Of a stretch of DNA of 64,000 nucleotides, positions 13,660 through 63,867 are shown piece by piece. Every line of letters starts with the position of its first letter. Position 1 is the first letter of the stretch. The position numbers and the translations under genes are program-made. The stretch is from the IMG/VR virus record IMGVR_UViG_3300024272_000023. The stretch is one strand, 5' to 3'. This DNA is from a virus (lineage: Duplodnaviria; Caudoviricetes). The notes beneath the pieces were generated by a model, which saw only the letters and a list, made by a program, of their open reading frames with translations, was not told the DNA's origin and searched no databases.

Positions 13660-16600
13660 TTATCTGCTAAAACGTTTAATTGAGTAATTAAGCTGTTTAG
13701 CAAATATATCAATTTTCTTATCCATCATCGCTTCAAGCTGAGGCAATGTGTCTTTATCAACACGGTCAACCTTTAGGAAGTTTTCCATATCGATAACAAT
13801 TTCTGGCTTATTAATTGCGTTAGCAATCATATTAATACCAGAATCAAACTTCGGTCTATTAATTAAGCCATCAACAACCTTTGGAAGATCAATTAATTCC
13901 CGTGTTAAGTCCGCTGGAATAACGGTACTTCCGGCTCTCATAAATGAAAGTGTACCTTCAGGAGTTGCATACATGGTTAATTCATCTCCAAATTGTGGCT
14001 CGTCTGTTATAGCCCATTCATCGCGAGTTGTACCAGTAGTACCCTTAGCATGGAAATGAGCGGGAACCATTTGATAATATTTATTATACCAGTCAGCGTC
14101 AGCACTATAGCCATTCTTACGAGACTGTATGGCACGATTTTTAATATTGCTTTCAAGTGCTCTGGCCGTATTATAATCGTATTTACCAGTCTGAGCAACC
14201 CCTATAGTTTTTTGTACTGATTTGAGAGCATTAGAGGTTTGAGTATCCCATATGCCGTTAACTGGAACCTGTTTATTGTAAACCTGTTCTAATATGGTTT
14301 GAAGCGTTCTGACGCTTGCGCTTGGAGTTGGTGTAGGATTTCCACCGCCTCCACCAGAGCCAGAACCCGATCCAGCATTTGGATTACCTCCAACATTTTG
14401 CACTCTCAACTGGGCCTGGTATGCATTGTCTGCGGCAGTTTTAACTCCATTCCACTTATCAATAATTTTTTGAATCTGATTAGCAAAACCGGTAATAGTA
14501 CTCGAAAACTTATTACCAAGTTCCGTTCCAGTCAAGAAGTTCGAATACTTTTCAACAGCAACCTTGGCTGTATTCCAAGAACCAGAAAGTTTTGAACCAA
14601 CTCCGTTTGCGAATACGGTAATAGCACCACCCTCGCCAATCAAAGCGGCATATTCACCGGAGGTCATACTTAGTTTCAATTCATCTTTCCACGCTATTGC
14701 CTGTGCAGATGCGTCTTTCCAAGGTTGAGTTAATTCATCAGATAATGTGATACCATATGTGTCCGCTATATCATTAAGTTCATTATAAACAATATCGGCA
14801 TTGAACAGCACATCCATCATACTATTCTGAATGAGCAATTCAACATTATCTAAAGTTTCTTCAAGTTTTTCGATGCGCTTTTCCTGAGATTTCCTGTATG
14901 CCTCAGATTCATCATCAAGTGCAGAAGACCGTGCGTCACGGCTGTGGTCATAATAAGTATCGTTTAGACCCTCTTTGGCTTCCATAAGTTGAGCCTCAAG
15001 ACGTCTACGTTCCGCTACATCGCTCGCTGCAGAACTACCACTTAAACTTGCGATACGACGCTCAAGTTCACTAATGTCTTTTGTTTGCTTTTTAATATTT
15101 TTTCTAAAATCATACAGATCTCTTTCGGCATCTAATTCTTCTTTTTTTGCATCAATTAAATCTTCGTATGCCTCAATTTCTTTTTCAATTCCTTCTTTTA
15201 TAGCGTCAATGCGAGCTTCGTTAAGTTCAATAATGCTATCTCGTGCGTCATTTTGCGCATTGATCGAATCGTATAAACCATCAGTCAATGTTGCAAGACG
15301 CTCTTGATATTGCTCTTCGCTTAATTCACCATTCTTATATTGCTCTTCGACTTTTGCAATTTCAGATTGGTATCTCTGCGTGTCTGCGGCTGCCTTCTCA
15401 ATAAGATTCGTATACATTGCCATACGAGTCAGTGCGGCAGAACTCCAGTTACCATTCTCATCTGCGACGTCTTCGTCTTCTAGTAGACTATCAACAAGCT
15501 CTAATTCTTTTCCCAAACGCGAAATTTCATCTGTGGCTTGTTCAAAATAATGGATATCAATTTCGCGAAGCGCCTCTTGCCAAGCGATGGTGTTTGATTC
15601 ACACTCTTTGATTGCCACAGCAACCTCATTAAGAGTATTATTGTAATCGGTCCATGTGTCCTGGTCGATAGCGTCTTTATTTGCTTCAAGATAGTTGCTT
15701 AACGCAGTATACTGTTCTTCTAATAAATCCTTTTCTTCCGTAGAAGTGCGAAGTAAATCTTCGTAATATTCTGCTGACGCTTTTCCACCACGAGCCTCAG
15801 CTTTGTCAATTTCGGCCTCAATAAGATTGCGCTCATTGGTGATGAGGGCAAGTCTATTTTCGTATTTTGCAACCAACCTGTCCCATTCAGATTCAGCTTC
15901 TTCTTGGCCAGAAGTTTTGCTACCTGGATCAAGAATATTATTAAATGATGTTGGAAGATTATCTCTAACTGAATCAATTAATCCAACGGTATTTTGGAAA
16001 TTAGTCAATACTTGTTGCCACTCTTCATCGCTAACAAACTCATTATCCTGCGCACCTTTTAATGCAGCATTAAATGCAGCTACCGACCCGGCAGCAACAA
16101 TTGCATCACTAGCGACAGTACTAAGTGCGCCAGAATAAGTTCCAAGCTCAATCGACGCTTGATTTGCGGCTACGGCACTATTACTAACCTCTATGGCTTT
16201 CTTGCGCTCTGCTAACGCATTTAACTGGGTTATCGCAGTCTGTACGGCGGTTGCTTCAGCGTCAGCGAGTTTAGTTTCAAGCATGGCTTGAAGTGCAGAT
16301 TGATTAATGGTTAATTGACCGCCCTCCATTTTTAGAACCGCAAGATATTCGGGTTGCAGCTGAAGCAATGCTTGAAGATTATCTAAAGACAAATAACCCT
16401 GTGCATTATATTCGGTCGTAATGTCTTTCAAGGTAGAGTAAACACTTTGAACTTTATCCGCAACAGTGTCAAAGGATTCAAATTCCAAATCAACTTTTAA
16501 TCCAAGTTTATCGCCAAGTTCATCTAATGTACCTTGTGCCTCTTCGGACAATTCATCATAATTTTGCGGATCTTCAAAATATGTTTGAAGCGCGAGTAGC

Positions 16601-19600
16601 TGCTCGTCTGTAGATACCATACGCGCAATTTCAGATTTAATTTCTTCATCAGACATATGTCTGGCCATAAAGTGAGTTTCTTTATACTTGGCAATTTGCT
16701 CATCAGTGATTTCGACTGTCGGGGCGATAACTTCGTCATACAATTTTTCGATTTGCTTTTGAATAGCTTTTCGATTTGCCTCTGCGTTGTCCTCATTAGA
16801 GGCTATAGTTGCTGTGTTGGTTTTGTCTGCCTCGGTTCGTGTGCTAATCCACAAAAACTTTCCACTCTTTTTTTTTTCGGATTTTTTAACTGCTTTTTCT
16901 AATTCATCTTCGCTTGCTTTGGCTCTTTCATATTCTGATGTCAGTGTTTGTAAAGTTTGAATCTGCGTATTATAAGTATCTGCCTTTTTTTTAGCGCTCT
17001 TTGCATCGTAAGTCGCCGCAATTACTTGTTTTTGTTCGGCGGTAAGTAAAACATTGTTTGCCTTTTCATACTCAGAAATTGCCTCTTCGATTGTTTTTCC
17101 GCCGTTTAAAACTTCATTCGCAATTTGTTCACCTATGCTAGAATATTCCTTAATGCCATTAAGTAGCTCCGATGCATTATTAACGCCCATATTGGTAAGC
17201 TGAGACCATAGTGCCACATATTGCTCCGTTTCAATTTTTTCTCCAGATAAAGCCGAAGTAATTAAAGTTTCAATTAAGTCATTAATTGCCGCCTTAGCTT
17301 CTTCGGTGGATGCGGTACCGGATGTCATAATGCTTACAAAATCAGTCCACTTATCGCCCATACCACCAAAGGTTTCACTAAGCTCTACAAGTGTTTGGGC
17401 GGTAACAATACCCGTTTCGTTGAATTCCTCAAAAGCACCCTTTAAACTTTCTACCTTGTCTGCGAGTTTTGCAGCTGCTTTAATGGCATCTTCAGTAGTA
17501 AATTCTTGTGCTTCCTCTTCAGCCTTCTTTAAGTCTTGGAAATAATATTTGACATCTGTGACAGTAACACCCATTTTGTATAGATTCTGTTTGAAGTCTT
17601 CATCAAACGCACTAGAGAAATCAAATTCTTCTCCGGCTTTCATTGCTTCTTCGATATCTTTCTTGATATCCTTAAGCTCTTGTGATGCATTATCTCCAAA
17701 GAGGCGCGATATATAGTTGGTTTTATTAAAAGTACCTCGTGCTACGCTGTACTGATCCCGAAGTTCGGCTAAATAATCGAGCGCCTTATCAGATTCTGCG
17801 CTATCTCCGTATTCAACACCGTTCAGTGCTTCAGAAATAACAGCAATATATTCATCTATTTCGGCAGATTTTTCATCCAATTCCTTTTGATATTTTTCAA
17901 TATCTTTTAAAGAAGATGCATTATCTAACTTATTTTTAATCTCTCGATAATCAGCCATATCGTCAAGAACTTCTTCGTCCTCTGATTTTCCGTTGAGCCA
18001 CGTACCAATTTCATCACGTTTGCTATCAACAACTTTTGCCGCTTGACGACCAACAATGCCAGCTTTATGTTTTTCCTCGTCTTCCAAGAGTTCTTTCCTA
18101 TGCTCTAACTCAGCGTTTGTTGCTCGAAGTTTATCGAGTTCTTCCTGCTCTTCGAATGTAAGATTACCTTTTGCAAGAAGCTCTTCCATACGATCGTTGG
18201 TTTTTTCAAGTTCAGAATTAACAGAATCAAGCTCGGAACGAATGTCGGAAAGTTCTGATTTAAGACCATCAAGTTCTTCTTGGAGTTCTTCGGTCGATTT
18301 ATGAATTGCAGCAAACGCTGCACCTAATGCCACAACAGCGCCGACGGCAAGCAATATCCATCCGATTGGTGTGGTAGTCATAAATGTCCACATAGCTTTT
18401 GTGGCACCCCAAATTCCTGCCATTAACCCCTTAAAACCAAGACCAAGAAGTTGTGTCATAGTCATATTGGCAATTTGAGCTTTCGTTAAAGCACCATTTG
18501 CAATTTGTTGCTTGACATATTCCGTTGATAACAACTTCATTATCAATAACTGTTTAAGCTTCGCACCAACATCCGCAAGGGTAGCGTCTTTACTCATTGC
18601 TGTTGCTAAAACATCTTTCCAAGTAGACGCCACCTTGCCGTCTGACGCCAACGCGGCTACTGCGTCAATTGTTGCGCTCTCTCCAGTAACAATATTGTCG
18701 GCCTTTTCTGCCGCTGTTTTCGCATTAATTGCTGCGGTCATTCCATCCAGCTTGCCGGACGCCTCTCCAATCGTTTTGTCCATTTCGGCTAAATCAAACT
18801 GAGCGGCATAACGCACAGTGTCTACTTTTTTCTTCTGCAATGAGTCTAAGTCTTTTTCTATATTGGCTATTTCCTGAGACGCATCTGTAATATGTTGGTC
18901 GCGCTCCTTGTTCATGCGGATACCATCATTAAATTTACGGGTAACTGGCTCGGACTCTGCTTTTGCAAGCTTTTGTTTTGCTACCTCTAATTTCTTCTGC
19001 GTGTCTGTTATGTCGTCATCTATGGAAGTCGTGTCAATCTCGACCAACTTTAGCATATCGTCACGGGAGTCTGATTCTACGGCTTTGGCCAACTCTTCAC
19101 GTCTTGCCTTAATTGCATCTACTTCTTTTACGAATGCATCTCTATCGCCGATAAGCGCACCTAATTCTGGGTCAACGGGTGCTTTAGGTTCAGCGTCGTC
19201 AATTTGTTTACGCAAGATATCAACGCGATCCTGCGCGTCTCTTCTTTCTTGAGCGGTACGCTTATTTCCATGTTGCACGTCCGCCTGAGTTGTCTTAGCA
19301 AGATCTTGCTCTGCCTTTGCTAATTGTTGTTTAAGCGCTTCGACACCGTCTTCTGCTGGCTTAAAGAAATTGCTAAAAATGCCATGATTTTTCTCTAAGT
19401 ATGTCAGAAATCCGACAAATGCGATATTCACTGGGCCAATTGCGTCAACTATTTTTACAAGTTGCGTCGCAAGGTCAACAAAGAATTTGACAACATCGCT
19501 ATCAAGTGTGTCACTCCACATTGCTTGCATAGCATTGTTGAATTGGTCAATTTTACCCTGAATGCTATCCAAATATTTTTCATTTTCTTTTAACGCACTA

Positions 19601-20124
19601 CCCTCTGCGTTCATCGCATCTTTATATGCTGCCTTAAGATCTTCTGGATTTTGAAGCAGAGCTGCAATAACCGAACTATTTCGTTTTCCGGCTAGAAGTT
19701 CCAATAATCCCGCTCTAGCTTTGTCATCAGTAATTTGGTCCCATACCTCTGCGATTTCCAATAATATCTGATATGTGCTTTTATAAGCACCAGTATCAGT
19801 TAAAATATCTACGCCAGAAATGGCCAATACTTGACTACGAAGTTTTGATGTAGATTCGACGGCGCCATCGGTGTCTAAGCCTTCTTCCTCTAAAACCTTC
19901 ACTGAAGTTCCACGCAATCTTAAAGATGTTGTCTTCAATGCAGTTCCCACAGAATCCGCGTCCTGAATTATAGCATTGGCTGTCGCAGTCAAGGCTGCCG
20001 CCTCGGCAAGGTTACCGCCTGCAGCAACCAATGATGCAGAAGATTTAGTTAAAGATTGGGCCAAATCTGCTGTCGAGATTGCATAGTTGTTGCCTATAAT
20101 ATTGAGCGTGTTAACAACTTCCAT
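13660..20124 (-). CDS. tape measure protein, C-terminal part (TP901-like core, TM segment, coiled coils, C-terminal peptidoglycan-binding domain)
   Basis: NIIGNNYAISTADLAQSL and GTALKTTSLRLRG TMP core motifs; hydrophobic GWILLAVGAVVALGAA; continuous with the upstream ORF after a -1 shift at ~20163. Confidence 0.85.
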   Translation of the reverse strand: MEVVNTLNIIGNNYAISTADLAQSLTKSSASLVAAGGNLAEAAALTATANAIIQDADSVGTALKTTSLRLRGTSVKVLEEEGLDTDGAVESTSKLRSQVLAISGVDILTDTGAYKSTYQILLEIAEVWDQITDDKARAGLLELLAGKRNSSVIAALLQNPEDLKAAYKDAMNAEGSALKENEKYLDSIQGKIDQFNNAMQAMWSDTLDSDVVKFFVDLATQLVKIVDAIGPVNIAFVGFLTYLEKNHGIFSNFFKPAEDGVEALKQQLAKAEQDLAKTTQADVQHGNKRTAQERRDAQDRVDILRKQIDDAEPKAPVDPELGALIGDRDAFVKEVDAIKARREELAKAVESDSRDDMLKLVEIDTTSIDDDITDTQKKLEVAKQKLAKAESEPVTRKFNDGIRMNKERDQHITDASQEIANIEKDLDSLQKKKVDTVRYAAQFDLAEMDKTIGEASGKLDGMTAAINAKTAAEKADNIVTGESATIDAVAALASDGKVASTWKDVLATAMSKDATLADVGAKLKQLLIMKLLSTEYVKQQIANGALTKAQIANMTMTQLLGLGFKGLMAGIWGATKAMWTFMTTTPIGWILLAVGAVVALGAAFAAIHKSTEELQEELDGLKSELSDIRSELDSVNSELEKTNDRMEELLAKGNLTFEEQEELDKLRATNAELEHRKELLEDEEKHKAGIVGRQAAKVVDSKRDEIGTWLNGKSEDEEVLDDMADYREIKNKLDNASSLKDIEKYQKELDEKSAEIDEYIAVISEALNGVEYGDSAESDKALDYLAELRDQYSVARGTFNKTNYISRLFGDNASQELKDIKKDIEEAMKAGEEFDFSSAFDEDFKQNLYKMGVTVTDVKYYFQDLKKAEEEAQEFTTEDAIKAAAKLADKVESLKGAFEEFNETGIVTAQTLVELSETFGGMGDKWTDFVSIMTSGTASTEEAKAAINDLIETLITSALSGEKIETEQYVALWSQLTNMGVNNASELLNGIKEYSSIGEQIANEVLNGGKTIEEAISEYEKANNVLLTAEQKQVIAATYDAKSAKKKADTYNTQIQTLQTLTSEYERAKASEDELEKAVKKSEKKKSGKFLWISTRTEADKTNTATIASNEDNAEANRKAIQKQIEKLYDEVIAPTVEITDEQIAKYKETHFMARHMSDEEIKSEIARMVSTDEQLLALQTYFEDPQNYDELSEEAQGTLDELGDKLGLKVDLEFESFDTVADKVQSVYSTLKDITTEYNAQGYLSLDNLQALLQLQPEYLAVLKMEGGQLTINQSALQAMLETKLADAEATAVQTAITQLNALAERKKAIEVSNSAVAANQASIELGTYSGALSTVASDAIVAAGSVAAFNAALKGAQDNEFVSDEEWQQVLTNFQNTVGLIDSVRDNLPTSFNNILDPGSKTSGQEEAESEWDRLVAKYENRLALITNERNLIEAEIDKAEARGGKASAEYYEDLLRTSTEEKDLLEEQYTALSNYLEANKDAIDQDTWTDYNNTLNEVAVAIKECESNTIAWQEALREIDIHYFEQATDEISRLGKELELVDSLLEDEDVADENGNWSSAALTRMAMYTNLIEKAAADTQRYQSEIAKVEEQYKNGELSEEQYQERLATLTDGLYDSINAQNDARDSIIELNEARIDAIKEGIEKEIEAYEDLIDAKKEELDAERDLYDFRKNIKKQTKDISELERRIASLSGSSAASDVAERRRLEAQLMEAKEGLNDTYYDHSRDARSSALDDESEAYRKSQEKRIEKLEETLDNVELLIQNSMMDVLFNADIVYNELNDIADTYGITLSDELTQPWKDASAQAIAWKDELKLSMTSGEYAALIGEGGAITVFANGVGSKLSGSWNTAKVAVEKYSNFLTGTELGNKFSSTITGFANQIQKIIDKWNGVKTAADNAYQAQLRVQNVGGNPNAGSGSGSGGGGGNPTPTPSASVRTLQTILEQVYNKQVPVNGIWDTQTSNALKSVQKTIGVAQTGKYDYNTARALESNIKNRAIQSRKNGYSADADWYNKYYQMVPAHFHAKGTTGTTRDEWAITDEPQFGDELTMYATPEGTLSFMRAGSTVIPADLTRELIDLPKVVDGLINRPKFDSGINMIANAINKPEIVIDMENFLKVDRVDKDTLPQLEAMMDKKIDIFAKQLNYSIKRFSR

Positions 20125-23100
20125 TGATGTGTCCGCAGTATATCCAAAAGCTTGTACTGCTGAATCAACGAATCGGTTGCTTGAGAAACATCTGTAAATT
20201 CACTAACATTCATCAATATTTGAGTGCTTTCAGCAAATTTAACAGCATCTTCCATAGAATGGCCTAGACGGGCCCAGTCCGCTGTAGAACTCACAACCTT
20301 CTGAACCGTACTGCCAACCTTGTCTGCAGTCTTCGCCGCAGTCTCTAGGAACCTATCATAAGTTTCTTCTGTTTCGTTCGTTACCTTCTTAAGTTCTGTT
20401 AATGCAAGGTCGATATCTCTTACATATTGAACACCCTTCTTCAACTCATTAAACGCCTTAAAGATAATACTTGAGCCACTAAAGTACGTAAAGATTTCTT
20501 TTGTCTTACGAGTAATCGTTTCGATAATCGTCTCCGTCTTCTTGATACCAGTACGCAGCATACTTAATCTGCCTGTAAGTGGATCTACCGTCGCACTCCA
20601 AGTTGCAAAAGTATTTGCTGCAATCTTGGTCGTGCCAGTTAACTCGCCCGTCTCATCCTTGAGCCCTTTAATAGTCGTCTTACCAGACGAAGCATTTTTA
20701 ATCGCCGCAGTGATATTATTCCAATATTCCCTGGTACCAACAGCGCCAAAATTACTTGCGTCACCAAGGTCAGTTACATTGTCTCCGCTATACTTTTCAT
20801 GAATCTTCAGATAACCATCAACCTCGGTCTTAAGTTCTTTAACTTTCGATATCTGTTTGCTTAGATTATCTCTATCCTCAGCAGACGCTTGGTCGCCCTT
20901 CTTGTCAATCTCATCGCGTAACATACGCAACATCTTGATCCGTTCAGACAGCTCTTTAGCTTTGCTTTCAATATCCTTAAAAATACCCTCGGTACCAATA
21001 GCACGCACAACCGTCTGGTCACCAGCATTAGCTGCGGATGTCGCTGCATTAATACCAGTCGCTCTTTGGGCATCTTTGACTTGCTTCTTCCATGCGGTCT
21101 CAGCATCCTTATCGTCTTTCTTTTTCTGTTTATTTATCTCTTTTTGCGCCTTTTCGGCATCCAACAATCTTTTCTCGGCATCAAATGCTACGCTATACTT
21201 TTCTCTTAGACTAGCACTTTCGTCCATTGTCAACTTCAAGGACTTTCTTTTTCTAGATATCTCTTCTTTGAGATTTTCAAGCATAGCCTTTGTTTCAAGA
21301 TTAGCATCACTTGCAAACTTAGCCGATAATTTACCAAGAGTTTTATAATCATTGATAAGCGATTTCATCATGTTGGAGCGGGCAGCCTGTGCTTTAGCTT
21401 CGGATTCTACGGGTTGCGCATTCGCCTGCTTAATAGCTCCTCGTGTAGCAATAACACCTCCCTTGGCGATCTTGCCGTCAATAGACTCCAAAACAGACTT
21501 AATTTCTGCCAATCTACCATCAAGAGCTGTACCGGCTATTGCATCAACGTTCGAAGGTGCAATGGCTCCAATCTTGCTGGTATTAGTATGAATATTATCA
21601 AGCACACCCTTGACTGTTTGCAGCGTATTTTCAAGTGCCCAAGGCGCCTGCTTCGGTTCTGAATCATTTTGTTGTGTTTGAGGATTAAGAATATTTGCAA
21701 AAACCTTAGTTAGTGTTGATTCAAGAGTAGAATCTTCTAATGCAATCTTATTTGCTGCCTTATCACTATCATCATGTGCAATCTTCACATTATACACAAT
21801 CGAATTAAGAAGTGTTTTAAGTTCCTCTGAAGCTACAGACGCATGTTCTTCGCTTCCGCCAGTTTTAGCATTAGCCAATTGACCACGAAGATCAACCATC
21901 TCTTCCTGCATGCTTGTCATTGCACGGTCATACATGTACGCCCTATCTTCTGCTTCCTTAGTTCTCTGATTTGCCTCTACTAGTTCTGCTTCGACGGCTT
22001 CTGTTACATGTCTTTCAGCAGCGGCCTCATCTTGTGCAACCCGCTCTGCTAGCTCAGCTTCTTCGCGCTTTCTATTTGCCTCAATAACTTCCGCATCCTT
22101 TGCTTCGAGTTGTTGACGCATGTTTTCAAGTTCCGCAGAAGATGCGTCTCCGGTACCGCCGCCAGGCGTCAATTGCTGTGTTTTTTCTAGGCTCTCATTG
22201 AGACCATTAACGGATTGTTCGGCAGCAATAATCTTTTCACCAAAACTTTGCCATTGTTTTCCTGGAATATCTAAAAGGTTTGGTGCAACTTCTTCTATCT
22301 TCTCGCCTACACTAATTAACTCATCATATTCAGAATCATTAAGACTGTCCCTATTTTTAGTTAATACTGCATAGTTTTTTATCAACTCTTTAAGCTCTTC
22401 ATTCGCACGAGCAAATTCATCATCAAGAGATTCGGTTTTTATATCTTTATTCCTTGGTTGTGGCTCGTTATAAATATTTGCAATAGGCAATTCTGGCATT
22501 TTAATTGATTGCATAACCCCGGGAATACTTTGCAAGACTTCCTCTAAATCCTGTCTCAACATAACTTGGACGGCCTCTTGTCTTCCCTGGAGCGAACCAA
22601 ACTTGTCTATTTGCTCATCATAACTCATTGCTTTAACTTGTGCGCTCAACTTTTCATCTAAATCTCTGTATTTTTCGATGACTTCCAAAAGTTGAGATGG
22701 GTCTAACTTAGAAAAATCGAAAGCGAGTAATTCTTCACCGGCTCTAATGCCAAATTTCTTTATGTATGATAATTGCTTAAACCACGTTTCGAAATCGGTG
22801 ACAGAAGGAGCCGCCGTCTTCCAAGAATGCGAATGTACCTCCATGTCGTATCCAAGCTCAGACATCTTTCTTGATGTTCCTGGGTCCATAGTAACGCCAT
22901 GGGGGTCTCCAACAAAGAGTTCACTCATATTGCCAGTTTGAGTATTAACAAAAGCTAAAGATTCATTTTTTTTGTCTGTTTTTTCAAATTCGCCCTGGAA
23001 TTTATCCATCGCCTGCATCAATCCGAGCTCTTCTTTGCGAGCGTTGGCAGCTTTCTCTTGAGCTTTGGCTAATTTTTCTTCTTCAATGCGTTGTCTTTTC

Positions 23101-24659
23101 AGACTTTCTTCTTGTTCTTTTTCTGCCAATATCCTCTTTTCCGCTTCTTCTCGCGCTTCTTTTTCCGCTCTCGCTTTTGCCTCCGCCTCTTCTCTAAGTT
23201 TTTGAGCATTAGCAACATCCTCTGGTGTTAGAGCCCCGGTACCGTCCCCTCCAGCTCCACCCAGTCCAACAGGCGGTTTTCCTTCACCCATATTAAGAAT
23301 GCTTTGTAGCATATTTTGAGCATTATCAGCCATAGGCTTCAGTTGTTCATATAACGGCGTAAAAGGATTATTCTTTTTAGTTATCTTGTTTGAATGAGTT
23401 TTGTTTGCTGTTGTCAAGTAAGATTCATATAGTCTAACATACTTAAGCAACGCCCGATATTCTTCTACCCAATTTCCGGATTCTGCCGCTTTCTGATATT
23501 GATCATAAAGAGCCTTAATTCCTTCGCTTGATTTAGAAGGATCAAATTCAAGAGCAGACGCGATGTGCTTTACCTGTCTATCATCAATTCTTTTTTCTCC
23601 ATCAACACGAAGTTTGTTATACACCTCTTCAATTTCATTTAATGTTTTTAAGCCGTTGTTTTCATTTTTTACAACGGTCTCAACGGCGCCTCCTGCAGTT
23701 TGTATCGATTTAGTAATTTCAGATATTTGAGCATCAATCTCTGACATTCGATTCTCAACGGCGCTTAATTCCTTTTGGCTTTTGTTAATCGTGCCTGCAA
23801 ATCTCTCCCATCTGTCTCCTATGAATTCGCCCGCATTAGTTTCATAAAACGGAACGAGAGGATTTTTACCAGCTTTATACGCCTTCTCTTCATATGCCAT
23901 CCTATCTTCGGTAACATGGAAACCATCACTGTCGTCGTACTCTAATAAGCCATATGCCGCCCGTATACTTTCTGGCACCTTTACTTCTGTTTTTTGTAAT
24001 GACTTACGCATTCTATACAAATCATGATATATTTCCTGTGCCTCATATAGAGCTTTTATATACTCCTGAGAATCTTGGCCCTGTTCTTTTCCTATGTCGC
24101 TTAATTGTTTTGCAGTATTGCGAAGACTGGAATACATTTCTTTTGCTTTTTGTATAATATCTCCATCAACATTCAAAGACTTAACGGTCTTGTCATCAAA
24201 ATCAATTAAGCTATCAGCCTTGCCCTTATTTGTAACCTTTTTATTAATTTCGGCCTGTATTCTGGTACGCTCTCGTTTTAAATCAGCTTGTTCTAACCGC
24301 AGTTGTTTTAAGGACTCCTCAAGCCCGGCCGTTGAAGCACCACTTATTCCGCCAGAAACAGAATTCCATGCGTCCCAGAACGACGTCGCCGCAATCTTAC
24401 CCATTTCTGCAAACATAGCAGGAGGCGGCATCTCGATTAGATCTGCAAAATTAATGCTCTTATTGCCCGCCTTGGTAAAAATCATCTCAAACGCCTTAGC
24501 AAGATTCTTCAAACTTGCAATATTCTCTTTTGAATTTAAATCAATCTTAGACGCATTATCAAATATGTCGCTAAGCTCGGTTATAAGTTCTGATTTAGAT
24601 TTCTTTTCAAGTCCAACGGCCACGTCTAATATATGTTTAGCAACTACATTATTATCCAT
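20094..24659 (-). CDS. tape measure protein, N-terminal part, containing a JAMM/JAB-like domain
   Basis: Ends with the start of the TMP core (IDLALTELKKVT...STADWARLG...NVSEFTDV); internal E...HSHSWKTAAPSVTD. Confidence 0.8.
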   Translation of the reverse strand: MDNNVVAKHILDVAVGLEKKSKSELITELSDIFDNASKIDLNSKENIASLKNLAKAFEMIFTKAGNKSINFADLIEMPPPAMFAEMGKIAATSFWDAWNSVSGGISGASTAGLEESLKQLRLEQADLKRERTRIQAEINKKVTNKGKADSLIDFDDKTVKSLNVDGDIIQKAKEMYSSLRNTAKQLSDIGKEQGQDSQEYIKALYEAQEIYHDLYRMRKSLQKTEVKVPESIRAAYGLLEYDDSDGFHVTEDRMAYEEKAYKAGKNPLVPFYETNAGEFIGDRWERFAGTINKSQKELSAVENRMSEIDAQISEITKSIQTAGGAVETVVKNENNGLKTLNEIEEVYNKLRVDGEKRIDDRQVKHIASALEFDPSKSSEGIKALYDQYQKAAESGNWVEEYRALLKYVRLYESYLTTANKTHSNKITKKNNPFTPLYEQLKPMADNAQNMLQSILNMGEGKPPVGLGGAGGDGTGALTPEDVANAQKLREEAEAKARAEKEAREEAEKRILAEKEQEESLKRQRIEEEKLAKAQEKAANARKEELGLMQAMDKFQGEFEKTDKKNESLAFVNTQTGNMSELFVGDPHGVTMDPGTSRKMSELGYDMEVHSHSWKTAAPSVTDFETWFKQLSYIKKFGIRAGEELLAFDFSKLDPSQLLEVIEKYRDLDEKLSAQVKAMSYDEQIDKFGSLQGRQEAVQVMLRQDLEEVLQSIPGVMQSIKMPELPIANIYNEPQPRNKDIKTESLDDEFARANEELKELIKNYAVLTKNRDSLNDSEYDELISVGEKIEEVAPNLLDIPGKQWQSFGEKIIAAEQSVNGLNESLEKTQQLTPGGGTGDASSAELENMRQQLEAKDAEVIEANRKREEAELAERVAQDEAAAERHVTEAVEAELVEANQRTKEAEDRAYMYDRAMTSMQEEMVDLRGQLANAKTGGSEEHASVASEELKTLLNSIVYNVKIAHDDSDKAANKIALEDSTLESTLTKVFANILNPQTQQNDSEPKQAPWALENTLQTVKGVLDNIHTNTSKIGAIAPSNVDAIAGTALDGRLAEIKSVLESIDGKIAKGGVIATRGAIKQANAQPVESEAKAQAARSNMMKSLINDYKTLGKLSAKFASDANLETKAMLENLKEEISRKRKSLKLTMDESASLREKYSVAFDAEKRLLDAEKAQKEINKQKKKDDKDAETAWKKQVKDAQRATGINAATSAANAGDQTVVRAIGTEGIFKDIESKAKELSERIKMLRMLRDEIDKKGDQASAEDRDNLSKQISKVKELKTEVDGYLKIHEKYSGDNVTDLGDASNFGAVGTREYWNNITAAIKNASSGKTTIKGLKDETGELTGTTKIAANTFATWSATVDPLTGRLSMLRTGIKKTETIIETITRKTKEIFTYFSGSSIIFKAFNELKKGVQYVRDIDLALTELKKVTNETEETYDRFLETAAKTADKVGSTVQKVVSSTADWARLGHSMEDAVKFAESTQILMNVSEFTDVSQATDSLIQQYKLLDILRTHQWKLLTRSIL

Positions 24660-24671
24660 AATCCCACCTCC

Positions 24672-25196
24672 TTAATTCATTCTCTTAATTTGCTTTGCAA
24701 AAGAAGTTATAATGTTTTTATGAAATGTTGTATTTGCATAATTATTTAAGTATGTTGTCATATGTTCGGTTGGCGAAATAGCGTCAACGTTTTCATAATA
24801 GAACGCCTCGCCCGGCTTCGAGTTACCATCTGTAGCAGGATGAACACCGCGAAGATAATTATCTAAAATCCACGAACTATCGGTCGGACGGTACCTTTTT
24901 GACCCATAATACGTACCCTCTATCCGTGCCGCATCATATTCTACACCAACACTACTTGTTATTTTATCTTTATCTTGTTGAATCGTCAGATATGGCACGA
25001 TTGCTCGCCACAAACTGTCGGTACGTTCGTAGCTCGTGGGGTCATACGAGTCATAATAACGCTCAAGGCAACTCATAGATTCTTTATATATATCTTTTAC
25101 CGCCTCATTAGAAGCATATTCTACTGCCTCTTTCAAGGCGCTCTCGTAATTCTTCATCAATTCGTCTATGGCAGACTCCAATGTTCTCTTTGCCAT
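24672..25196 (-). CDS. putative tail completion/assembly protein
   Basis: Position immediately upstream of TMP; YYDSYDPTSYERT motif; strong RBS. Confidence 0.5.
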   Translation of the reverse strand: MAKRTLESAIDELMKNYESALKEAVEYASNEAVKDIYKESMSCLERYYDSYDPTSYERTDSLWRAIVPYLTIQQDKDKITSSVGVEYDAARIEGTYYGSKRYRPTDSSWILDNYLRGVHPATDGNSKPGEAFYYENVDAISPTEHMTTYLNNYANTTFHKNIITSFAKQIKRMN

Positions 25197-25213
25197 ATCT
25201 AACTCCTCCGTAA

Positions 25214-25786
25214 TTATTTAATTTTATCTAAAAGACCAATCAGATTGGTCAAATCTTCTCCCTTAATATCGGCGCCAAGAATGTTCTTCAAGTCAAAATT
25301 CTCAAACTTATCCTGGATCACCTCGAGCACTCCATCAAGCACGTCGGAAATCTTATTCAAGAAGCGGCCAACAAGTGCATTTGTACAATTATCCTCCAGC
25401 TCCATTTCGAGTACCATCTTGCGCAGAAGATCAATCTCGTCGTGCGAACCCTGGAACTGCGCTATAATCTGCGGAAGCAATCCGCTTTCAGCAAGCAGGT
25501 CATAATCTGAAATAGGATTTGTCGAGAACTTCAAATTGGTATGAGCCATAATAGAAGCCGCAATAAGTGCAATATAACCAGAAATGGAATCATACTTCTT
25601 AATACCATCAACCTCGGCTATATTCTGCGCCGCCACCATCTCTGCGATTTCACGCTTAGTGCTGAACGGTACATACTCCTTAACCTCCAACTCCTTTTTG
25701 AGCCATTCAATTCTCTCCTTATCGCCCTGCTTAGTGTTCATAAATTTCTTTGCTTTGTAATTCTCGCAAAATTCTTTAATAGTCAT
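25214..25786 (-). CDS. putative tail assembly chaperone
   Basis: Acidic helical 190-aa protein upstream of TMP; AAAGGAG RBS. Confidence 0.45.
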   Translation of the reverse strand: MTIKEFCENYKAKKFMNTKQGDKERIEWLKKELEVKEYVPFSTKREIAEMVAAQNIAEVDGIKKYDSISGYIALIAASIMAHTNLKFSTNPISDYDLLAESGLLPQIIAQFQGSHDEIDLLRKMVLEMELEDNCTNALVGRFLNKISDVLDGVLEVIQDKFENFDLKNILGADIKGEDLTNLIGLLDKIK

Positions 25787-25859: not shown

Positions 25860-28800
25860 TTAATCATTTTGCATTGTTTCTAATTTATTTTCAAGTTCTT
25901 CTACTCGTTTCTTGAGTTTCTGAATCTCATTAACACATAAAGCTATGAATTCACCATATCGAAGTCCATAACCCTTTGAACCATCATTTTTATCATACTC
26001 TATATATCCAGCAAAATCAGATGTTGATATGTTTGTTTTTTGTAATGCATCTCTAACATCTTGCGAAATAAATCCTATATGATATCTATTACTATCGTTA
26101 ACATTAAACTTATATCGCACAGGCTGTAGTTCGTCAAAGAATGTTCCATATTGATCTGGAATGGCCTCTATTGAGTTCTTTTCATTTCTATCAGACAACG
26201 AATTAAGATCAGATTGTACACACCAAATCTCTTTCCATCTACTATCCTGAGTTCCTAATGTATACGTAGTCTCACCGTTCTTACCAGAAACAAAGTTACC
26301 ATTACAAGTTATTTTATTTACGACTGAAGCACTAGGCTGGATAAAGTCACCAACATAATAACTCACGCTATCAAATGTTTCCACCTTATATCCTCTTTGT
26401 ATCAAATGTGGAACAGTAAATGATTTACTACTTGCTCCAGGTTCAAAGGTTACATAATGTGATATATTTATATTATTAGTATACCACACAGTTACTCGAA
26501 ATGTCCGACTTTGCAAAGGGGTTCTCTTGTGTAATATACCAGTACTAGGATCCTTAAAATAAAGACTTACACCAATCTGAACTTGACCTTCGTCCCGTAC
26601 TTCCTCTGGAGTTATTATCGTCAGCCCTAACTGAATTGGAATGCCATAGTCAAAAGTTCCTTCTTTTATAATCGTGCTTCCTGCATGAACCTCCACTTTT
26701 TCAGATGGTGTTTCTGAATCATCTAAATCTAAAGATGTCATTTCGTTCATACCTGATATTATGCTTGTTTTTACTTTGGGCGACCCCAACTCTTCTGTCG
26801 CACTTACTTTCTTTGTCATTACTTCTCTTGAATTGGAATCCAAAGTTAATCCACCGTCTTTGGAAGTTATTAAGCCTTTATATATTGATAACGCTCCAAA
26901 ATGTCCTTCTGTGGCATTAACCGTTCCATTAATACTTGCTGCGTTCGCATACAAGCTACCATCTTCAAGGACTAAAAAATTCGGGAGTATTGGACCTGTA
27001 GGTTTCTTGAAAGCAGAACCCGCAAAAATACGAGCATTAGAAGTTGTATTGGGATTAACTATAGAAGAAAAAATGCTAGTTAGTACATATCCCCACGTTA
27101 CAGGACGTTCGCTGTTGTTCCAAGTGGAATCCCAACTAGACGGCTGAGGCGTTGCCTCACAATATATCATACAAATAGATAAGTCATCAGTGGTCATTCC
27201 GCATGAAAATGCATTGGCCCCCATAGTGCTGACACTATCAGGTATATACACTGTTTCTAGGCCGGAGCAATTCCAGAACGCCTCTTTGCCGATGCTTGTT
27301 ACGCTGTCGGGGATCACTACACTTGTAATGTTTGCTTGATAAGCAAACGCCTTATCACCAATACTTGTGACACTATATTCTCCTATTTTAAATGGAATAT
27401 TAACTTGACTAAGATGAAGTTTTAATTTCGTTATCTCACATGTCTTATCATCATCATTTTTTTCAATCTCAAAGATATCTTCATATGATAATGATGACAA
27501 TGATGATGAACAAAGTCCCACATGACCCATTAGTTCCGTACCTGAATATAACATATCCTCTTCAATATGCCATCCGCCAATAGTGCCGCCAGTGGCATCA
27601 ACATCCCTAGCAACCACATTTCCATTTGTATCTACGATAAATTTGTCAGCGACATTAATAGCCTTGCTGTATGTACCACTATCAATATTATCAGCCGAAA
27701 GGGTTAAACTGGTTGCATCGATTTTACCGCCATTAATAACAGTTTGACCGTCCTTGTTTGTTGTTAGCCCATTTATTGTATCGCTCCAGGATTTAAATGT
27801 AGTAGTGCCATCCACACTAATCTTATCTCCCCGAATCGTCACACCTTCACTGGAAGCATTAATACAAGTAATAACATTATCTCTTCCTACCATATCCTCG
27901 GGAGCAGGTGTCCAGTCTGTAACACTGTTGCCCCTTTCAATTTTTATATCCGTAACATATATCGGATATTTTGCATAATAGCCTTCGGCATCCGCTTCGT
28001 AGGTAAATACACGAAACCGCGCATTTGTCATATCTGTGTGTTGCGAAGAAACAGTCCAATGGTACCTTTCAGGAACAGAAGTTACTTCCAAGAATTTTTG
28101 TGGTAATGTATCTGGCCATAAATCCCAGGTCAATTTTTGTCTTGCCGTTGTGTCTGTGGTTTCAAGCCAAGCCGTGAATGAAACGGTATATTCTGTGTCA
28201 GTTTCCAAATCCAAATCCTCGGAGTGACAAAAAATATCATAATTAGTAGTCCCACCAGCACAAACAAATCCAAAACCGGACTTGCTATTTTTGTCAATAG
28301 CTATTGGCGCGGTATTCTTGCCGTCAACAGTCAAAGAATAGTCGGATTTTGCAATTAGATTTCGTCCGCCGGCACTAACAACGTCTTCTGGGGCCGGTGT
28401 CCAGCTAGTCGCTTTATTTCCCTTTTCTAATTTTAACTCGGAAAACTGGATTGTGCCTTTGTAATAATTATCATAATAAAGTTGAAAACTTAGATAATAT
28501 CCAACGGCATTTTCTTCGACAGCGAACGTTTCCGCAAAATAAACCCAGTCTGTGGTATCGGCTGTCGCAATAGGTGTATTGATGCCACCAGTCCAATAGT
28601 GAGAAAACTCCGAATCAGTTGCATTCGCCTGTGATCTTACGTTCAACGATATGAGCGAACCGCCGGAAGTTGCGGTAGTTGCGGAAGTTGTAACCTTCAC
28701 TTTGCCGCTGAAGGTGTATGTGCTACCAGCTTCAAGCGTGTACAGCGCAATCGCGCCGGGGTTCATAAAGCGGTAATAAATCTCGTTTATAGAAGTATTT

Positions 28801-31800
28801 GCATTTAGCGTTAAAACGCCGTTCTCAACAGAATAGCTATCCAAACCAATTACTCTTGCGCTACTTCCAACAAGAGTTATATCTTTGTTTCCTCCTGTGT
28901 TAAGAAGCAAATTCCTACCACCAATTTCAATATTATCAATAGCACTGTCTATCGAGCCCTGTATTGAAACCGAAAATGTCTCATTAACTAATAAATTATT
29001 GACATCTATTTGGTCTGCAGTAATAGTGCGGGTCGCAATATTCGCGCCATGAATGGTGGTACTCCCTAAAGTGCTCAAATCGGTCATCGTAACGTATCCA
29101 TTAAGATTAATATGGTCCGCCTCAATTACAACCGATGAACCTGCATCATTAACCGCAGTAACAATTGACGCCGCAGTTACCTTACCATCTTCTCCGACAC
29201 TTTCAACGACCTGTGCAATACTTGCGCCAGCATTATCTGCAGTCTGCTTAATATTTGCTAGATTATATTGACTACCGCCAGGATCTGTTTTCCAGGATGT
29301 TATACTTTGAACTTCCGATGCGGTATCTGATAACCACGCACCAAATCCGGCAACACTACCGTATGCGTCAACAACCTCGGCAACAATACTATTTGTATCC
29401 TGTCTAACCTGACTCACAGCTCTGCTCTGAGAATTACCTGCCAGTGTGGCAACAACGACCCAATGATACTGCGTAGCATTGCTTTCATCAACATACGATT
29501 CCCACTTATAAAGAGTATAAGCTTCATAGGGAGAAGTGACGTTGGCACCGTTAGTATACCAATAACCAAAATTACCGCTAACAGTTGGCTCTGTTGTGGT
29601 AAAATATACAGCCTTAGATGAAGTATTAACTTCACTTGTCTCCGTGTAATTTTTATCAATGGTAATCCATCGATATTGATCGCTAACTTTGCCCCACTTA
29701 TATAAATACTGCGGAGTAAAGCTCCTTGTGTATTTTTGAACTGCTTTATCGACATCTGTATATTCATATTCTTCTGTGACACTTACGGTTGGCACATAAA
29801 TCATACCCTCTTCAAGCACACTCGCCGCTTGCTCTAAAGTAAAACCATAAGCCTGAGAATGTGGTCCAACGCTATATTTATCCATATTTGATACAGTACT
29901 CTGAATATAAGCACCGTTAGCATCTGCCTTTTGTTCGATACGGGCCATAGAGGTATTGGTATCACCTTGCCAAGAAGTCAAACTGTTAATGCTTGAACTG
30001 GTCGCATCAGTAACAACTTGAATACCAGCAATTGAAGCCGGCAAACCTGCGGTGTAAGCATCAGCGGTTTCCTTCCAACCTGCTTCATAATATCTATATA
30101 CCTTATCCACAACAATATAATAAACATGGTTTGTGTCCACTTTACTATTGTTTTGTAAAGCGGCCCACGAAGATGTCCTTGTCCATGAATTACCACCCAC
30201 ACAATAAGCATATTTTCTAGTCCCGTCCTCTTTAAAAGCATAAATCTTAGAGGTATCTCTGTTCTTATCAACCCATTCGGGCATAACGACATATTTGCCA
30301 GCAACACGGTTAGAAACAAGAGAAACATTTGATTCATTCTCCTTAATGTATGTATTAAGTCCGGCAAGTCCAGTAACTGTTGTACCATCGTTTTTGGTAA
30401 ATTCATGATTAACAATTGCACTTAATTCTGATGTATTATCATTAACATCTGCTACCAAGCCAGCAATTCCGCTGTTGCCGCTATCACTATTGCTATATTG
30501 CGCCAAAGTATTAATGCTAGCGGAATTTGCATTTGCCGTTGCTGTTATACCTGCGAGAGCAGTATTGGTTTCATTTTTCCACGAAGTTATTTGTTCAATA
30601 CTCGCCTTATTAGTATCCGCCGTTGCTTTAACTCCGGCAATTGTCGTGTTTAATTCCGTATCTTTTTGTGTCAATTGTTCAATACAAGCCTCATTTGCAC
30701 TAGCAGTTTGTTTAATAGAAGCAATGCTCGAAATATCGCTTTCTACCTCTGATTTCCATGAAGCTAAAGAACTAATACTAGATTCATTGACATTTGCCTT
30801 TTGTATAACGGCTGCGATAGATGTGTTAGCTGTGCCCTGCCACGCAGTAATTGATTCGATACTAGTTTTGTTAGCATCAGCCTGTTGCTTGATTGAGGTA
30901 ATGCTCGACACTTCATCTCCTACATCAGATTTCCAGCTCGTTAGAGTTTCCACAGAGGCTGTATTCTCATCCACCTGTGCCTGCAACCCCGCAAGATTGT
31001 CATCAAAGCCCGCTAAAGCCGAAATAGAACTCTTATTTTCATCAACCTGTGCTACCAAACCAGCAAATCCAGTTTTGCCGTCTTTTTCATACGAAGCAAC
31101 TGCAGAAAGAGCAGCCTCGTTGGCATTAGTCGTCGCCTCTATTTCAGTAATAGATGTCGTCGTCTCGTCTTTCCACGCTGTCAGAAGAGTAATATTGGCT
31201 TCGTTTGCATCTGCTTTTTGTTCGACCGAAGCAATACTTTCTGCCATATCCTCGGGGGCTGGAGTCCAATCCATTACCTGATTTCCTCTTTCAAGTTTTA
31301 TGTTCCATAAGTCATAAGTTATTACCATGTCAACACCACGGTTGGGCTGTATATAAATATTTTCATCGCTTAAAACTTCTGGATTCACCACGAAGGTTAA
31401 AATAATATAATGCTCCTTAAACGGTTTATCTGTGCTTCCGTCCTCATCTAACGGGATTCCATTCCCATAGGCTGAAAGCGATGGCATTTGAACTCCATCC
31501 AAAATGATTTTTGAAAATATAAAATCAGCACTGTGACCTCCGATATTTTTTAATGTACCACTAGTGCCCTGAAAGAAATAACTAAGGGTATAAGTTTCTT
31601 TGCTTTTTAATATCTCCTGGCTTATTCGTGTGCCATGGTATCCTGCATTTTTGGTAATATTCCAACCTTTTTTGGAACCATTATTTATAGTATTATTAAC
31701 GGTTACGCCAGAGTGAGTAATGAACTTATCACAAGCAAGGTTTTTACCTCCGATAGAAAAATTGTTTTGCCACGTAGTTACATTCTTAATACTGGCCTTA

Positions 31801-63316: not shown

Positions 63317-63393
63317 TGGTCATCCACGCAGGGCACGATCCTGCAACTCCTGGTTTCGAAGACCAGCACTCTATCCAATTGAGTTAGTGGACG
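63317..63393 (-). tRNA. tRNA-Arg(TCG)
   Basis: Cloverleaf, CTGGT-CT TCG AA-ACCAG, encoded CCA. Confidence 0.9.
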
Positions 63394-63462
63394 ATAATGA
63401 TAGGAGGTTCCGCAGAACCTCCTATGGTTGTAGGCTTCACAAGTTTCCACAACGCGATCACT

Positions 63463-63539
63463 TGGTTGCGGTGGATGGACTCGAACCATCGACCTCCGAC
63501 TTATGAGGACGGCGAGCTAACCATCTGCTCTACACCGCA
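63463..63539 (-). tRNA. tRNA-Met(CAT), initiator-like body with an atypical anticodon stem
   Basis: CCGTC-CT CAT AA-GTCGG, GAGC/GCTC D-stem, encoded CCA. Confidence 0.85.
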
Positions 63540-63542
63540 ATA

Positions 63543-63618
63543 TGGAGCTTTCGCAGAGACTCGAACTCTGAACAGCTTGATTACAAATCAAGTACACTGC
63601 CAATTGTGTTACGAAAGC
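63543..63618 (-). tRNA. tRNA-Thr(TGT)
   Basis: CTTGA-TT TGT AA-TCAAG, encoded CCA. Confidence 0.9.
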
Positions 63619-63621
63619 ATG

Positions 63622-63697
63622 TGGTACCTCCGGCGAGGTTTGAACTCGCGTCTTAGCCTTGAAAGGGCCATGTCTTAACCAACTTGACTACGGAGGC
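63622..63697 (-). tRNA. tRNA-Glu(TTC)
   Basis: TGGCC-CT TTC AA-GGCTA, encoded CCA. Confidence 0.9.
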
Positions 63698-63701
63698 ATT
63701 A

Positions 63702-63785
63702 TGGTGGGAGAGGTTGGAGTCGAACCCACTAAGCCAGAGGCAACGAGTTTACAGCCCGCCCCAGTTTCCGATTTGGTACTCTCCC
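63702..63785 (-). tRNA. tRNA-Tyr(GTA)
   Basis: GCGGG-CT GTA AA-CTCGT, long variable arm, encoded CCA. Confidence 0.9.
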
Positions 63786-63790
63786 ATATA

Positions 63791-63867
63791 TGGCGATTCC
63801 GAGGGGACTTGAACCCCTGGCCTCTAGCGTGACAGGCTAGCGCTCTAACCAACTGAGCTACGGAACC
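63791..63867 (-). tRNA. tRNA-Asp(GTC)
   Basis: CTAGC-CT GTC AC-GCTAG, encoded CCA. Confidence 0.95.

Follow-up and report, generated by a model that had tools for sequence, protein, structure and literature searches.

The tape measure gene of the virus record IMGVR_UViG_3300024272_000023 (Caudoviricetes) was analysed in a DNA stretch of 64,000 nucleotides, hereafter called the window. It was found that the long N-terminal extension of the tape measure protein contained a segment with an intact JAMM motif which, judged by residue conservation and by a structural model, is predicted to belong, with its catalytic residues intact, to the JAB/JAMM (MPN+) zinc-hydrolase superfamily. The family to which this segment belongs is divergent and is absent from Pfam, NCBIfam and PHROGs. 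Close and distant relatives carried other cassettes at the same place, and the sequence comparison indicates that the segment sits in a recombination-bounded slot. It was proposed that this protein, besides being the ruler of the tail, probably brings an exchangeable enzyme into the host, and we gave an even chance to the JAB domain itself being a delivered effector, whatever its chemistry.

The JAMM motif and its conservation

The minus-strand open reading frame (ORF) at 20094..24659 encoded 1521 amino acids (aa), and the peptide KKNESLAF...HSHSWKTAAPSVTDF began at aa 563 of the translation. The motif HSHSWKTAAPSVTD was located on the minus strand at 22835-22794 and fitted exactly the JAMM definition, E-xn-H-S/T-H-x7-S-x2-D (PMC300881). 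The first-pass annotation, which had been made from the sequence without database searches, had claimed an intact JAMM motif at this place, and its coordinates were reproduced exactly by codon mapping (H609 at 22835-22833, H611 at 22829-22827, S619 at 22805-22803 and D622 at 22796-22794). The predicted catalytic Glu, E566, was found 43 residues upstream of the first His. The following features were assigned to the domain:

22485..22979, minus strand: JAB/JAMM (MPN+) domain, aa 561-725, composed of an MPN core, a three-helix extension and a final strand, as predicted from the AlphaFold2 model, structure searches and conservation
22962..22964, minus strand: E566, predicted catalytic Glu that opens strand 1, invariant in alignments A2, A3 and A5
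22794..22835, minus strand: H609-S-H611-x7-S619-x2-D622, predicted zinc ligands and Ser, from codon mapping and the AlphaFold2 model

The segment was flanked by E/K/A-rich coiled-coil stretches and lay about 800 aa upstream of the tape-measure domain, which started near aa 1375. The pattern H-x-H-x7-S-x2-D occurred once in the six-frame translation of the whole window, when its chance expectation, calculated from the composition of the 1521-aa protein, was 0.0007 per 1521 aa.

Relatives were collected by scanning 1.84 billion representatives exhaustively with HMMER, which gave 29 proteins. The alignment of P0027 looked spurious, this protein was excluded from all later work, and 28 relatives remained. 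Nearly all of these were proteins of 1400-3960 aa with the JAB match at residues 350-870. The residues E12, H55, H57, A62, P64 and D68 (query numbering) were invariant in 28-29 sequences and S65 was nearly invariant; in a clean domain alignment of 12 rows, for which DNA references were used, E12, H55, H57, S65 and D68 were all invariant. The invariance of E/H/H/D held across roughly 25-75% identity, and H-x-H-x7-S was kept in 43 of the 45 unique domains. The conservation of these residues among homologues, on which the first-pass annotation had made its assignment depend, was thus observed in the 28 relatives. The JAB domain was also the most conserved part of the N-terminal extension, with a mean column identity of 0.5-0.64 versus 0.2-0.4 elsewhere. 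The ratio of nonsynonymous to synonymous substitution rates (dN/dS) of the domain was 0.17 and 0.09 against two relatives, these values being rough because dS was saturated; they indicate purifying selection.

The best Pfam match of the segment alone was Prok-JAB (E 0.016, 15.5 bits, the cut-off of the model being 25 bits), and it covered the HxH..S..D stretch. The same model was matched by 4 of the 28 family members, always on this stretch, with the best Pfam E of 0.0018. The PADLOC JAB models, which likewise matched the HxH..S..D stretch, were the only or the top matches for 3 of 5 members (E 0.0014-0.04), and in NCBIfam one member matched Cap3 only (E 0.11). The Pfam models RadC, DUF4329 and Toxin-JAB1 gave no match to the domain. 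The family was considered a divergent one because the sequence profiles found JAB below threshold only.

Neither the tape measure gene's N-terminal part (megablast) nor the JAB segment (tblastn) had a match in 50,697 phage records, and no match was obtained in viral contigs with a single protein as the query. With the alignment A1 as the query, one locus was found in viral contigs, none in genome contigs and one in metagenome contigs.

The predicted fold

The residues aa 555-730 were modelled by AlphaFold2 with the family alignment as the input. The model had a mean predicted local distance difference test score (pLDDT) of 92 and a predicted template modelling score (pTM) of 0.86, and an MPN alpha/beta fold was predicted for the domain. 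In this model, the Glu preceded the strand 13-17, the HxH ended the strand 52-56 and the S..D opened the helix 66-75.

When the model was compared with the PDB by Foldseek, JAMM/MPN proteins (BRCC36, Rpn11, PfJAMM1, RadC, AMSH, Cap3 and BubCD) occupied nearly all top rows, and two or three rows were entries of the endoplasmic reticulum membrane complex. VIA-align gave Z values of 7.5-5.6 for the same JAMM/MPN set. In an exhaustive VIA comparison with 48,161 PDB representatives, which was independent of Foldseek, the first ~28 rows were taken by JAMM/MPN proteins or by complexes of which such proteins are a part, and unrelated folds appeared from about Z 4.3. In that comparison PfJAMM1 reached Z 7.3 (106 residues aligned, 3.3 A), Cap3 6.6, RadC 6.4 (2.6 A) and Sst2 6.1. 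The MPN assignment carries weight because the match list was uniform and the motif was conserved. In the comparison with MPN, RadC and Prok-JAB suggested by the first-pass annotation, MPN proteins topped all structure searches with the predicted model, whereas the sequence profiles reached JAB only below threshold.

Several points weigh against this identification and against the delivery proposed for the domain. No curated model (Pfam JAB, Prok-JAB, RadC, DUF4329 and Toxin-JAB1; NCBIfam Cap3) was matched above its threshold. Searches of PDB sequences by phmmer and hmmsearch with the segment and with alignments A1 and A5 gave nothing meaningful. The hhalign comparisons of A5 with lambda K and with E. 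coli YicR were not significant; the alignment with YicR was nevertheless in register at HNH/HSH and PS. The spacing from S to D was x2 in 18 and x6 in 23 of the 45 unique domains, hence the textbook spacing is not constant in the family, although the window copy has it. The Z values of 5-7.5 are middling by the own caveat of the search tool, and the family is known from metagenome contigs only. Finally, the tail tube may not have room for three or more copies of a folded domain of 165 aa.

Some of these points would be expected if the segment was a non-catalytic structural spacer or carried the motif by chance, since the family stays below the threshold of all sequence models and its S-to-D spacing varies. 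Such an explanation is very improbable in our estimation: E, H, H and D were invariant at the identities given above, the JAB domain was the best conserved part of the extension with a dN/dS of 0.09-0.17, and the motif was hardly to be expected by chance.

The best match of the A5 profile among PDB sequences, itself not significant (E 0.068), was a relaxase (9qq7, residues 169-208, KEYGVFTNKKTGEV). This stretch resembled the first strand of the JAB family, E.G.F.NSKTG.

The cassette slot

A search with aa 1-460 of the window protein returned 34 tape measures (E 7e-269 to 4e-13). Comparison of these proteins delimited the following elements of the N-terminal extension:

23280..24659, minus strand: conserved N-terminal module, aa 1-460, common to the 34 giant tape measures with any cassette
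23220..23279, minus strand: upstream Gly-rich joint KPPVGLGGAGGDGTG, aa 461-480, KPLVGMGG in relatives, from the slot sequences
22320..23051, minus strand: variable cassette slot, aa 537-780, with a coiled-coil linker, the JAB domain and a trailing helix, from the breaks of homology
22350..22415, minus strand: downstream helix motif FARANEELKELIKNYAVL, aa 749-770, recurring after cassettes A, C, D and E, found by a regular expression
22125..22172, minus strand: downstream Gly-rich joint TPGGGTGDASSAELE, aa 830-845, near the resumption of homology in cassette-swapped relatives

The slot started after the KPLVGMGG.. joint and a coiled-coil linker and often ended with the helix Y..A.E.VKEL. In a subset of relatives it was closed by a second Gly-rich joint, ..GGGTGDAS... 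The exchange was most evident in the relative P0046: its identity to the window protein was 81% for aa 1-536 and 75% for aa 781-1466, but its slot held 565 unrelated residues in place of the 244 JAB-containing residues of the window. Four other relatives (P0048, P0063, P0064 and P0054) showed the same pattern, and in these homology resumed at aa 812-833.

The slot contents were grouped by reading the slot sequences and by shared motifs, and the counts include the window protein:

Type A, 16 members: the JAB domain described here, recognized by a hidden Markov model (HMM) of the JAB alignment and by the slot sequences
Type B, 4 members: ADP-ribosyltransferase (ART)-PolyVal-like; hhalign to the ART-PolyVal stretch of P0058 93%, E 3e-7; Pfam E 0.019 on P0048
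Type C, 3 members: a sister JAB with SLH[DN]HP..FTPSD; hhalign to A5 95.5%, E 1.6e-8
Type D, 7 members: matching no Pfam or PHROG family, from the slot sequences
Type E, 4 members: protein-kinase-like; language-model features 0.96-0.97 to the Pkinase and OspG-kinase clusters; motif NI.YD...F....D

The HMM of the JAB alignment found a clear domain in 16 of the 34 tape measures and gave a weak partial match on the type C protein P0057. Type D, the second commonest content (7 of 34), was represented in P0063 at aa 552-802 (L015:4654-5406) by LLLYRRV..GFGDGLY..FEFDAS..GYDGV..QGSVIYDP; its GYDGV stretch alone resembled ART-PolyVal. PHROGs contained no family for cassettes A, D or E. Two relatives carried two cassettes each, namely P0054 with types E (kinase-like) and C (sister JAB), and P0058 with type C and an ART-PolyVal domain at aa 1210-1386. 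One protein, P0074, fitted none of the types A-E. A Pfam match to ART-PolyVal was also obtained in 1 of the first 28 relatives, and its follow-up through 8 proteins was unsuccessful; the ART-PolyVal domain of P0058 came from another search, that with aa 1-460. An exchange of effector domains between relatives at this position had been raised as a check in the first-pass annotation; a sister JAB and ART-PolyVal-like, kinase-like and type D cassettes were indeed observed there.

A stand-alone JAB of 159 aa (P0025, L003 4380-4859) was encoded in an unrelated phage-like contig next to genes for a SprT-like protease, a methyltransferase, an integrase and AAA_24. The JAB gene was the only one that this contig had in common with the tape-measure loci, which suggests that the module works outside the tape measure protein.

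These observations bear on the proposal, also made in the first-pass annotation, that the tape measure is processed by its own JAB domain; the cuts could fall, for example, behind the Gly-rich joints GLGGAGG.. and ..PGGGTGDAS. By such self-processing the N-terminal extension would be shortened or set free while the tail is assembled or once the protein has been ejected, and the case for it would be stronger if a free JAB was encoded by the phages whose tape measures lack the domain. Other phages are known to process their tape measures, and the Gly-rich joints flank the slot on both sides. Moreover, JAMM enzymes typically cleave after Gly-Gly (PMC300881, PMC3482391), and peptidases that process their own polypeptide recur among polyvalent proteins (PMC5512222). 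However, the JAB is missing from about half of those tape measures that share this N-terminal module and upstream joint, a stand-alone JAB copy exists away from any tape measure, and a maturation protease should not be exchangeable for kinase-like or ART-like cassettes. Of the first 28 relatives, only about 6 had the downstream GTGDAS joint, which was also found after the cassette in several relatives from the search with aa 1-460 (P0044, P0047, P0052 and P0055). We regard self-processing as unlikely. The sequence GTGDAS..ELE as a universal cleavage site was rejected on account of the same count.

Proposed delivery and possible chemistry of the JAB domain

It was proposed instead that the JAB domain is enzyme cargo. 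The enzyme would be built into the virion as a part of the tape measure, would leave the tail together with it at infection and would act in the host cytoplasm as a ready-made effector; most likely it would hydrolyse a peptide or isopeptide bond in a metal-dependent manner. When a phage infects, its tape measure exits from the tail (PMC10770324, PMC7824862), and the RNA polymerase carried by the tape measure of phage P23-45 shows that such delivery can work. The alternative cassettes would need ATP (kinase) or NAD+ (ART), so that the slot contents are expected to work in the cytoplasm. The JAB domain was replaceable by ART-like and kinase-like domains, and for this reason an effector is favoured over a maturation protease. 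The first-pass annotation had offered a virion-delivered deconjugase or counter-defence enzyme beside a self-processing protease; the swapping of cassettes favours a virion-delivered enzyme over self-processing, when the deconjugase part was left unsupported.

If the substrate was a conjugate of a ubiquitin-like protein (Ubl), the JAB domain would remove the marks attached by host systems of the Bil type or of the Cap2 type found in CBASS (cyclic oligonucleotide-based antiphage signalling system), whether following injection or, at a late stage, in the cell that produces the phage, where it would be tethered to the growing tail whose tip proteins are targets of Bil. The predicted fold matched Cap3, a bacterial Ubl-deubiquitinase and BubCD (Z 5.6-7.5), the PADLOC JAB models were the top matches, and Bil conjugates Ubl to the central tail fibre (10.1101/2023.09.04.556158). 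The matches to Cap3 and to the deubiquitinase were, however, tied with those to RadC and archaeal JAMM1 (Z 6.4-7.5 for Cap3, BubCD, RadC and JAMM1). No Ubl, E1 or E2 gene was found near the tape measure gene, elsewhere in the window or at the loci of syntenic relatives, and the window held no small ORF ending in GG. In addition, the closest viral structural neighbours were NCLDV (nucleocytoplasmic large DNA virus) and phage proteins resembling Tox-JAB-2, a group said to be without the Ubl-tail tunnel (PMC3482391). The role in Ubl deconjugation is thus considered unlikely, and the link to Ubl, CD-NTase, Cap2/Cap3 or Bil chemistry drawn in the first-pass annotation was not borne out, since no partner gene was nearby and the similarity to Cap3 and BubCD was no better than that to RadC and JAMM1. 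In a combined reading, the slot would be shuffled by recombination for the delivery of enzymes, and its JAB domain would strip host Bil or Cap2 Ubl marks as the first anti-Ubl counter-defence enzyme brought in by a tail ruler; that the JAB domain has this role in the slot is likewise quite unlikely.

The structural neighbours pointed also in another direction, to a RadC- or Tox-JAB-like hydrolase which would act on nucleic acid or nucleotides and be delivered as an effector that is not a peptidase. RadC was matched at Z 6.4-6.7 with the lowest root mean square deviation (2.6-2.7 A). The nearest named clusters of the ESM language model were Prok-JAB, DUF4329 and Toxin-JAB1, all below 0.9, and the neighbours in BFVD included iridovirus, asfarvirus and algal-virus proteins together with phage proteins named 'RadC-like JAB'. 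A role of this kind was predicted previously (PMC3482391, PMC5512222), and the N-terminus of the tape measure adjoins the DNA end. On the other hand, the nuclease activity of JAB proteins is only a prediction and is not established in the literature examined, and the Pfam models of RadC, DUF4329 and Toxin-JAB1 did not match. We consider this chemistry quite improbable.

The JAB core with its three-helix extension had look-alikes in the ESM atlas and BFVD, none of which was detectable by sequence. The look-alike clusters carried the Pfam domains VG15, Phage_Mu_F and Phage_portal_3, and they also included 'minor capsid proteins' of 520-630 aa and proteins of nucleocytoplasmic large DNA viruses (NCLDVs). 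The MuF-type 'minor capsid' and portal fusions among these neighbours fit a module that rides on virion-internal proteins. Pfam VG15 (PF25310), searched for because of the ESM-atlas match, gave no match in the related virus record at E <= 1.

The tape measure gene

The tape measure gene was split in the window into two ORFs, 20094..24659 and 13660..20124, which overlapped by 31 nt in different frames. The features of the gene were as follows:

13660..24659, minus strand: whole tape measure gene, about 3,666 aa with the missing base restored, from collinearity and public runs
19282..20537, minus strand: canonical tape-measure domain PhageMin_Tail / phrog_4211, from profile matches
20160..20164, minus strand: site of a 1-nt deletion, ttgattcagca in the window versus ttgatTtcagca implied by the relatives
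14155..14319, minus strand: PG_binding_1 domain near the C-terminus of the tape measure, Pfam E 9.4e-10

The profiles PF10145 (PhageMin_Tail) and phrog_4211 (tail length tape measure protein; E 1e-51) matched across the junction of the ORFs, their profile positions being continuous across both. The nearest relative, P0003, was a single ORF of 3696 aa in a syntenic contig, and both ORFs of the window aligned with it collinearly. In the relatives, the sequence across the break read ..ATD(S/T)LIS(A/S)VQAFGY.., which corresponds to one T missing on the minus strand of the window. An additional A behind 20162, by which the frame was restored, was present in the contigs X1, X3, X7 and X8 from four public runs; these came from four separate studies of animal faeces metagenomes (2018) and a bovine gut metagenome (2025). 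Because of this base, it was concluded that the tape measure gene is intact in nature and that the split is peculiar to this record. A programmed frameshift at 20162 was rejected, since there was no slippery heptamer and the extra base was present in the DNA of the four runs.

The identification of the protein as a tape measure was based on the PhageMin_Tail and tape measure profiles and on its place between chaperone-like ORFs and distal tail genes. The location of the motif inside a tape measure protein, as stated in the first-pass annotation, was confirmed by the profile matches further along the same protein. The motif lies in the N-terminal extension, as had been claimed, but the 1521-aa ORF taken as its carrier is only a part of the split gene.

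The PG_binding_1 domain suggests a wall-directed function at the tip-proximal end of the tape measure. A weak match to an endolysin PHROG was also recorded on the region 14155-14319.

In the relatives, the tape measure genes were often interrupted 50-110 aa after the start of PhageMin_Tail, at a few recurring conserved sites (L008 8188-8913; L010 8729-9337; L004 14385-15497 and 20459-21367; L009 7823-8935; L014 8525-9637). The interrupted ORFs ended in ADWARLNI, DKFNEVGE, LPVDNYIG or NTNIRPII, and the inserted ORFs were LAGLIDADG, GIY-YIG or unnamed ones of 370 aa. By their sequence arrangement these interruptions look like endonuclease-bearing introns; the Rfam group I intron models did not match them.

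Genomic surroundings

The tape measure gene was located in a phage structural module with the large terminase, the portal, a 2606-aa fibre and two small ORFs:

24672..25786, minus strand: two small ORFs (174 aa and 190 aa) immediately upstream of the tape measure gene, from synteny
25860-33680, minus strand: 2606-aa fibre with BspA-type LRR_5 and a C-terminal Peptidase_S74 chaperone domain, from domain matches

The two small ORFs were kept at every related locus (L004-L011, L014 and L015), and their position fits tail assembly chaperones, which is inferred from the position only. In the relatives, the tape measure gene was followed downstream by a DUF6558 gene. The portal was 27-30% identical to the portals of large Bacillota siphophages of 120-169 kb, and the G+C content of the window was 39%. 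The source was concluded to be an uncultured, large Bacillota-type siphophage from animal guts.

The fibre gene lies upstream of the tape measure gene, which is an odd place for a fibre, yet it was kept in the relatives L005 and L014. Six tRNA genes (Arg-TCG, Met, Thr-TGT, Glu, Tyr and Asp) were found on the minus strand at 63317-63867, upstream of the structural module.

Comparison with known systems

JAB domains and polyvalent effectors have been described before, as has one tape measure that bears an enzyme, whereas a JAB cassette in a swappable tape-measure slot was not found in the literature searched. The window domain resembles the JAMM/MPN+ proteins AfJAMM, PfJAMM1, Rpn11, AMSH and CBASS Cap3 in its exact motif, its predicted fold and its best PDB matches. 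It differs from them by the three-helix C-terminal extension, by being embedded in a tape measure and by having no Ubl partner nearby, and the family differs by the S-x6-D spacing in half of its members and by matching no sequence model at threshold.

The RadC and Tox-JAB-2/DUF4329 clades (PMC3482391, PMC5512222) have the same conserved residues E, H[ST]H, S and D, and the structural and language-model neighbours of the window JAB point to these clades. Like the window family, they are a mobile conflict module found in both phages and large DNA viruses. The Tox-JAB-2 clade, present in NCLDVs and caudoviruses, was described as a predicted nuclease without the Ubl-tail tunnel (Zhang et al. 2012, PMC3482391). 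The carriers of those domains are toxins of RHS and secretion systems or conjugative polyvalent proteins, in contrast to the tape measure described here.

The closest precedents, beside the P23-45 tape measure, are the polyvalent proteins (Iyer et al. 2017, PMC5512222), in which ART-PolyVal, kinase-like and JAB cassettes are exchangeable on one virion protein that is predicted to be injected, like the cargo proposed here. In the tape measures, unrelated enzyme domains likewise varied between relatives, and the window protein combined one cassette with the C-terminal PG_binding_1 domain. However, polyvalent proteins contain up to 15 cassettes, compared with usually one or two here, and their carrier is a MuF or head-packaged protein; a head-associated anchor (MuF or portal-linked) was not found in this case, the anchor being the tape measure. 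A zincin/MPTase was not matched in the Pfam scans of the window proteins and of the relatives. The account of Iyer et al. (PMC5512222) does not mention tape measures, and in view of it the first-pass annotation was correct only in part when it placed RadC-like JAB domains in phage polyvalent proteins.

Among enzyme-bearing tail proteins, gp96 of the Thermus phage P23-45 is a tape measure of 5,002 aa with an N-terminal virion RNA polymerase, which is present in virions within the full-length protein and transcribes the pre-early genes (PMC10770324). Both proteins are giant tape measures that bear an enzyme at their N-terminal end, and that of gp96 acts early in infection. The enzyme is an RNA polymerase there and a JAB domain here, no swapping of cassettes was described for gp96, and for the JAB domain delivery is a proposal. 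Lambda K, with its JAB and NlpC/P60 domains, also has a JAB-type domain built into a phage tail protein, but it is a separate small protein of tail-tip assembly. Tape measures with peptidoglycan-hydrolase domains similarly contain an enzyme in a tail protein; wall hydrolases, however, act outside the cytoplasm.

Implications for tape measure proteins

Cassettes of this kind are at present annotated as plain 'tape measure', the family being absent from Pfam, PHROGs and NCBIfam. If the proposed reading holds, the cassette would offer a defined enzyme for probing the substrates of the JAB clade. In the literature searched, the RNA polymerase of P23-45 was the only experimental case of enzyme delivery by a tape measure. 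If the proposed reading is true, the tape measures of long-tailed phages would both set the length of the tail and deliver enzymes, and relatives would swap this cargo (JAB, ADP-ribosyltransferase-like or kinase-like) in the manner of toxin cassettes. The JAB enzyme would then be present from the first second of infection, as a new kind of tool for early takeover of the host or for anti-defence.

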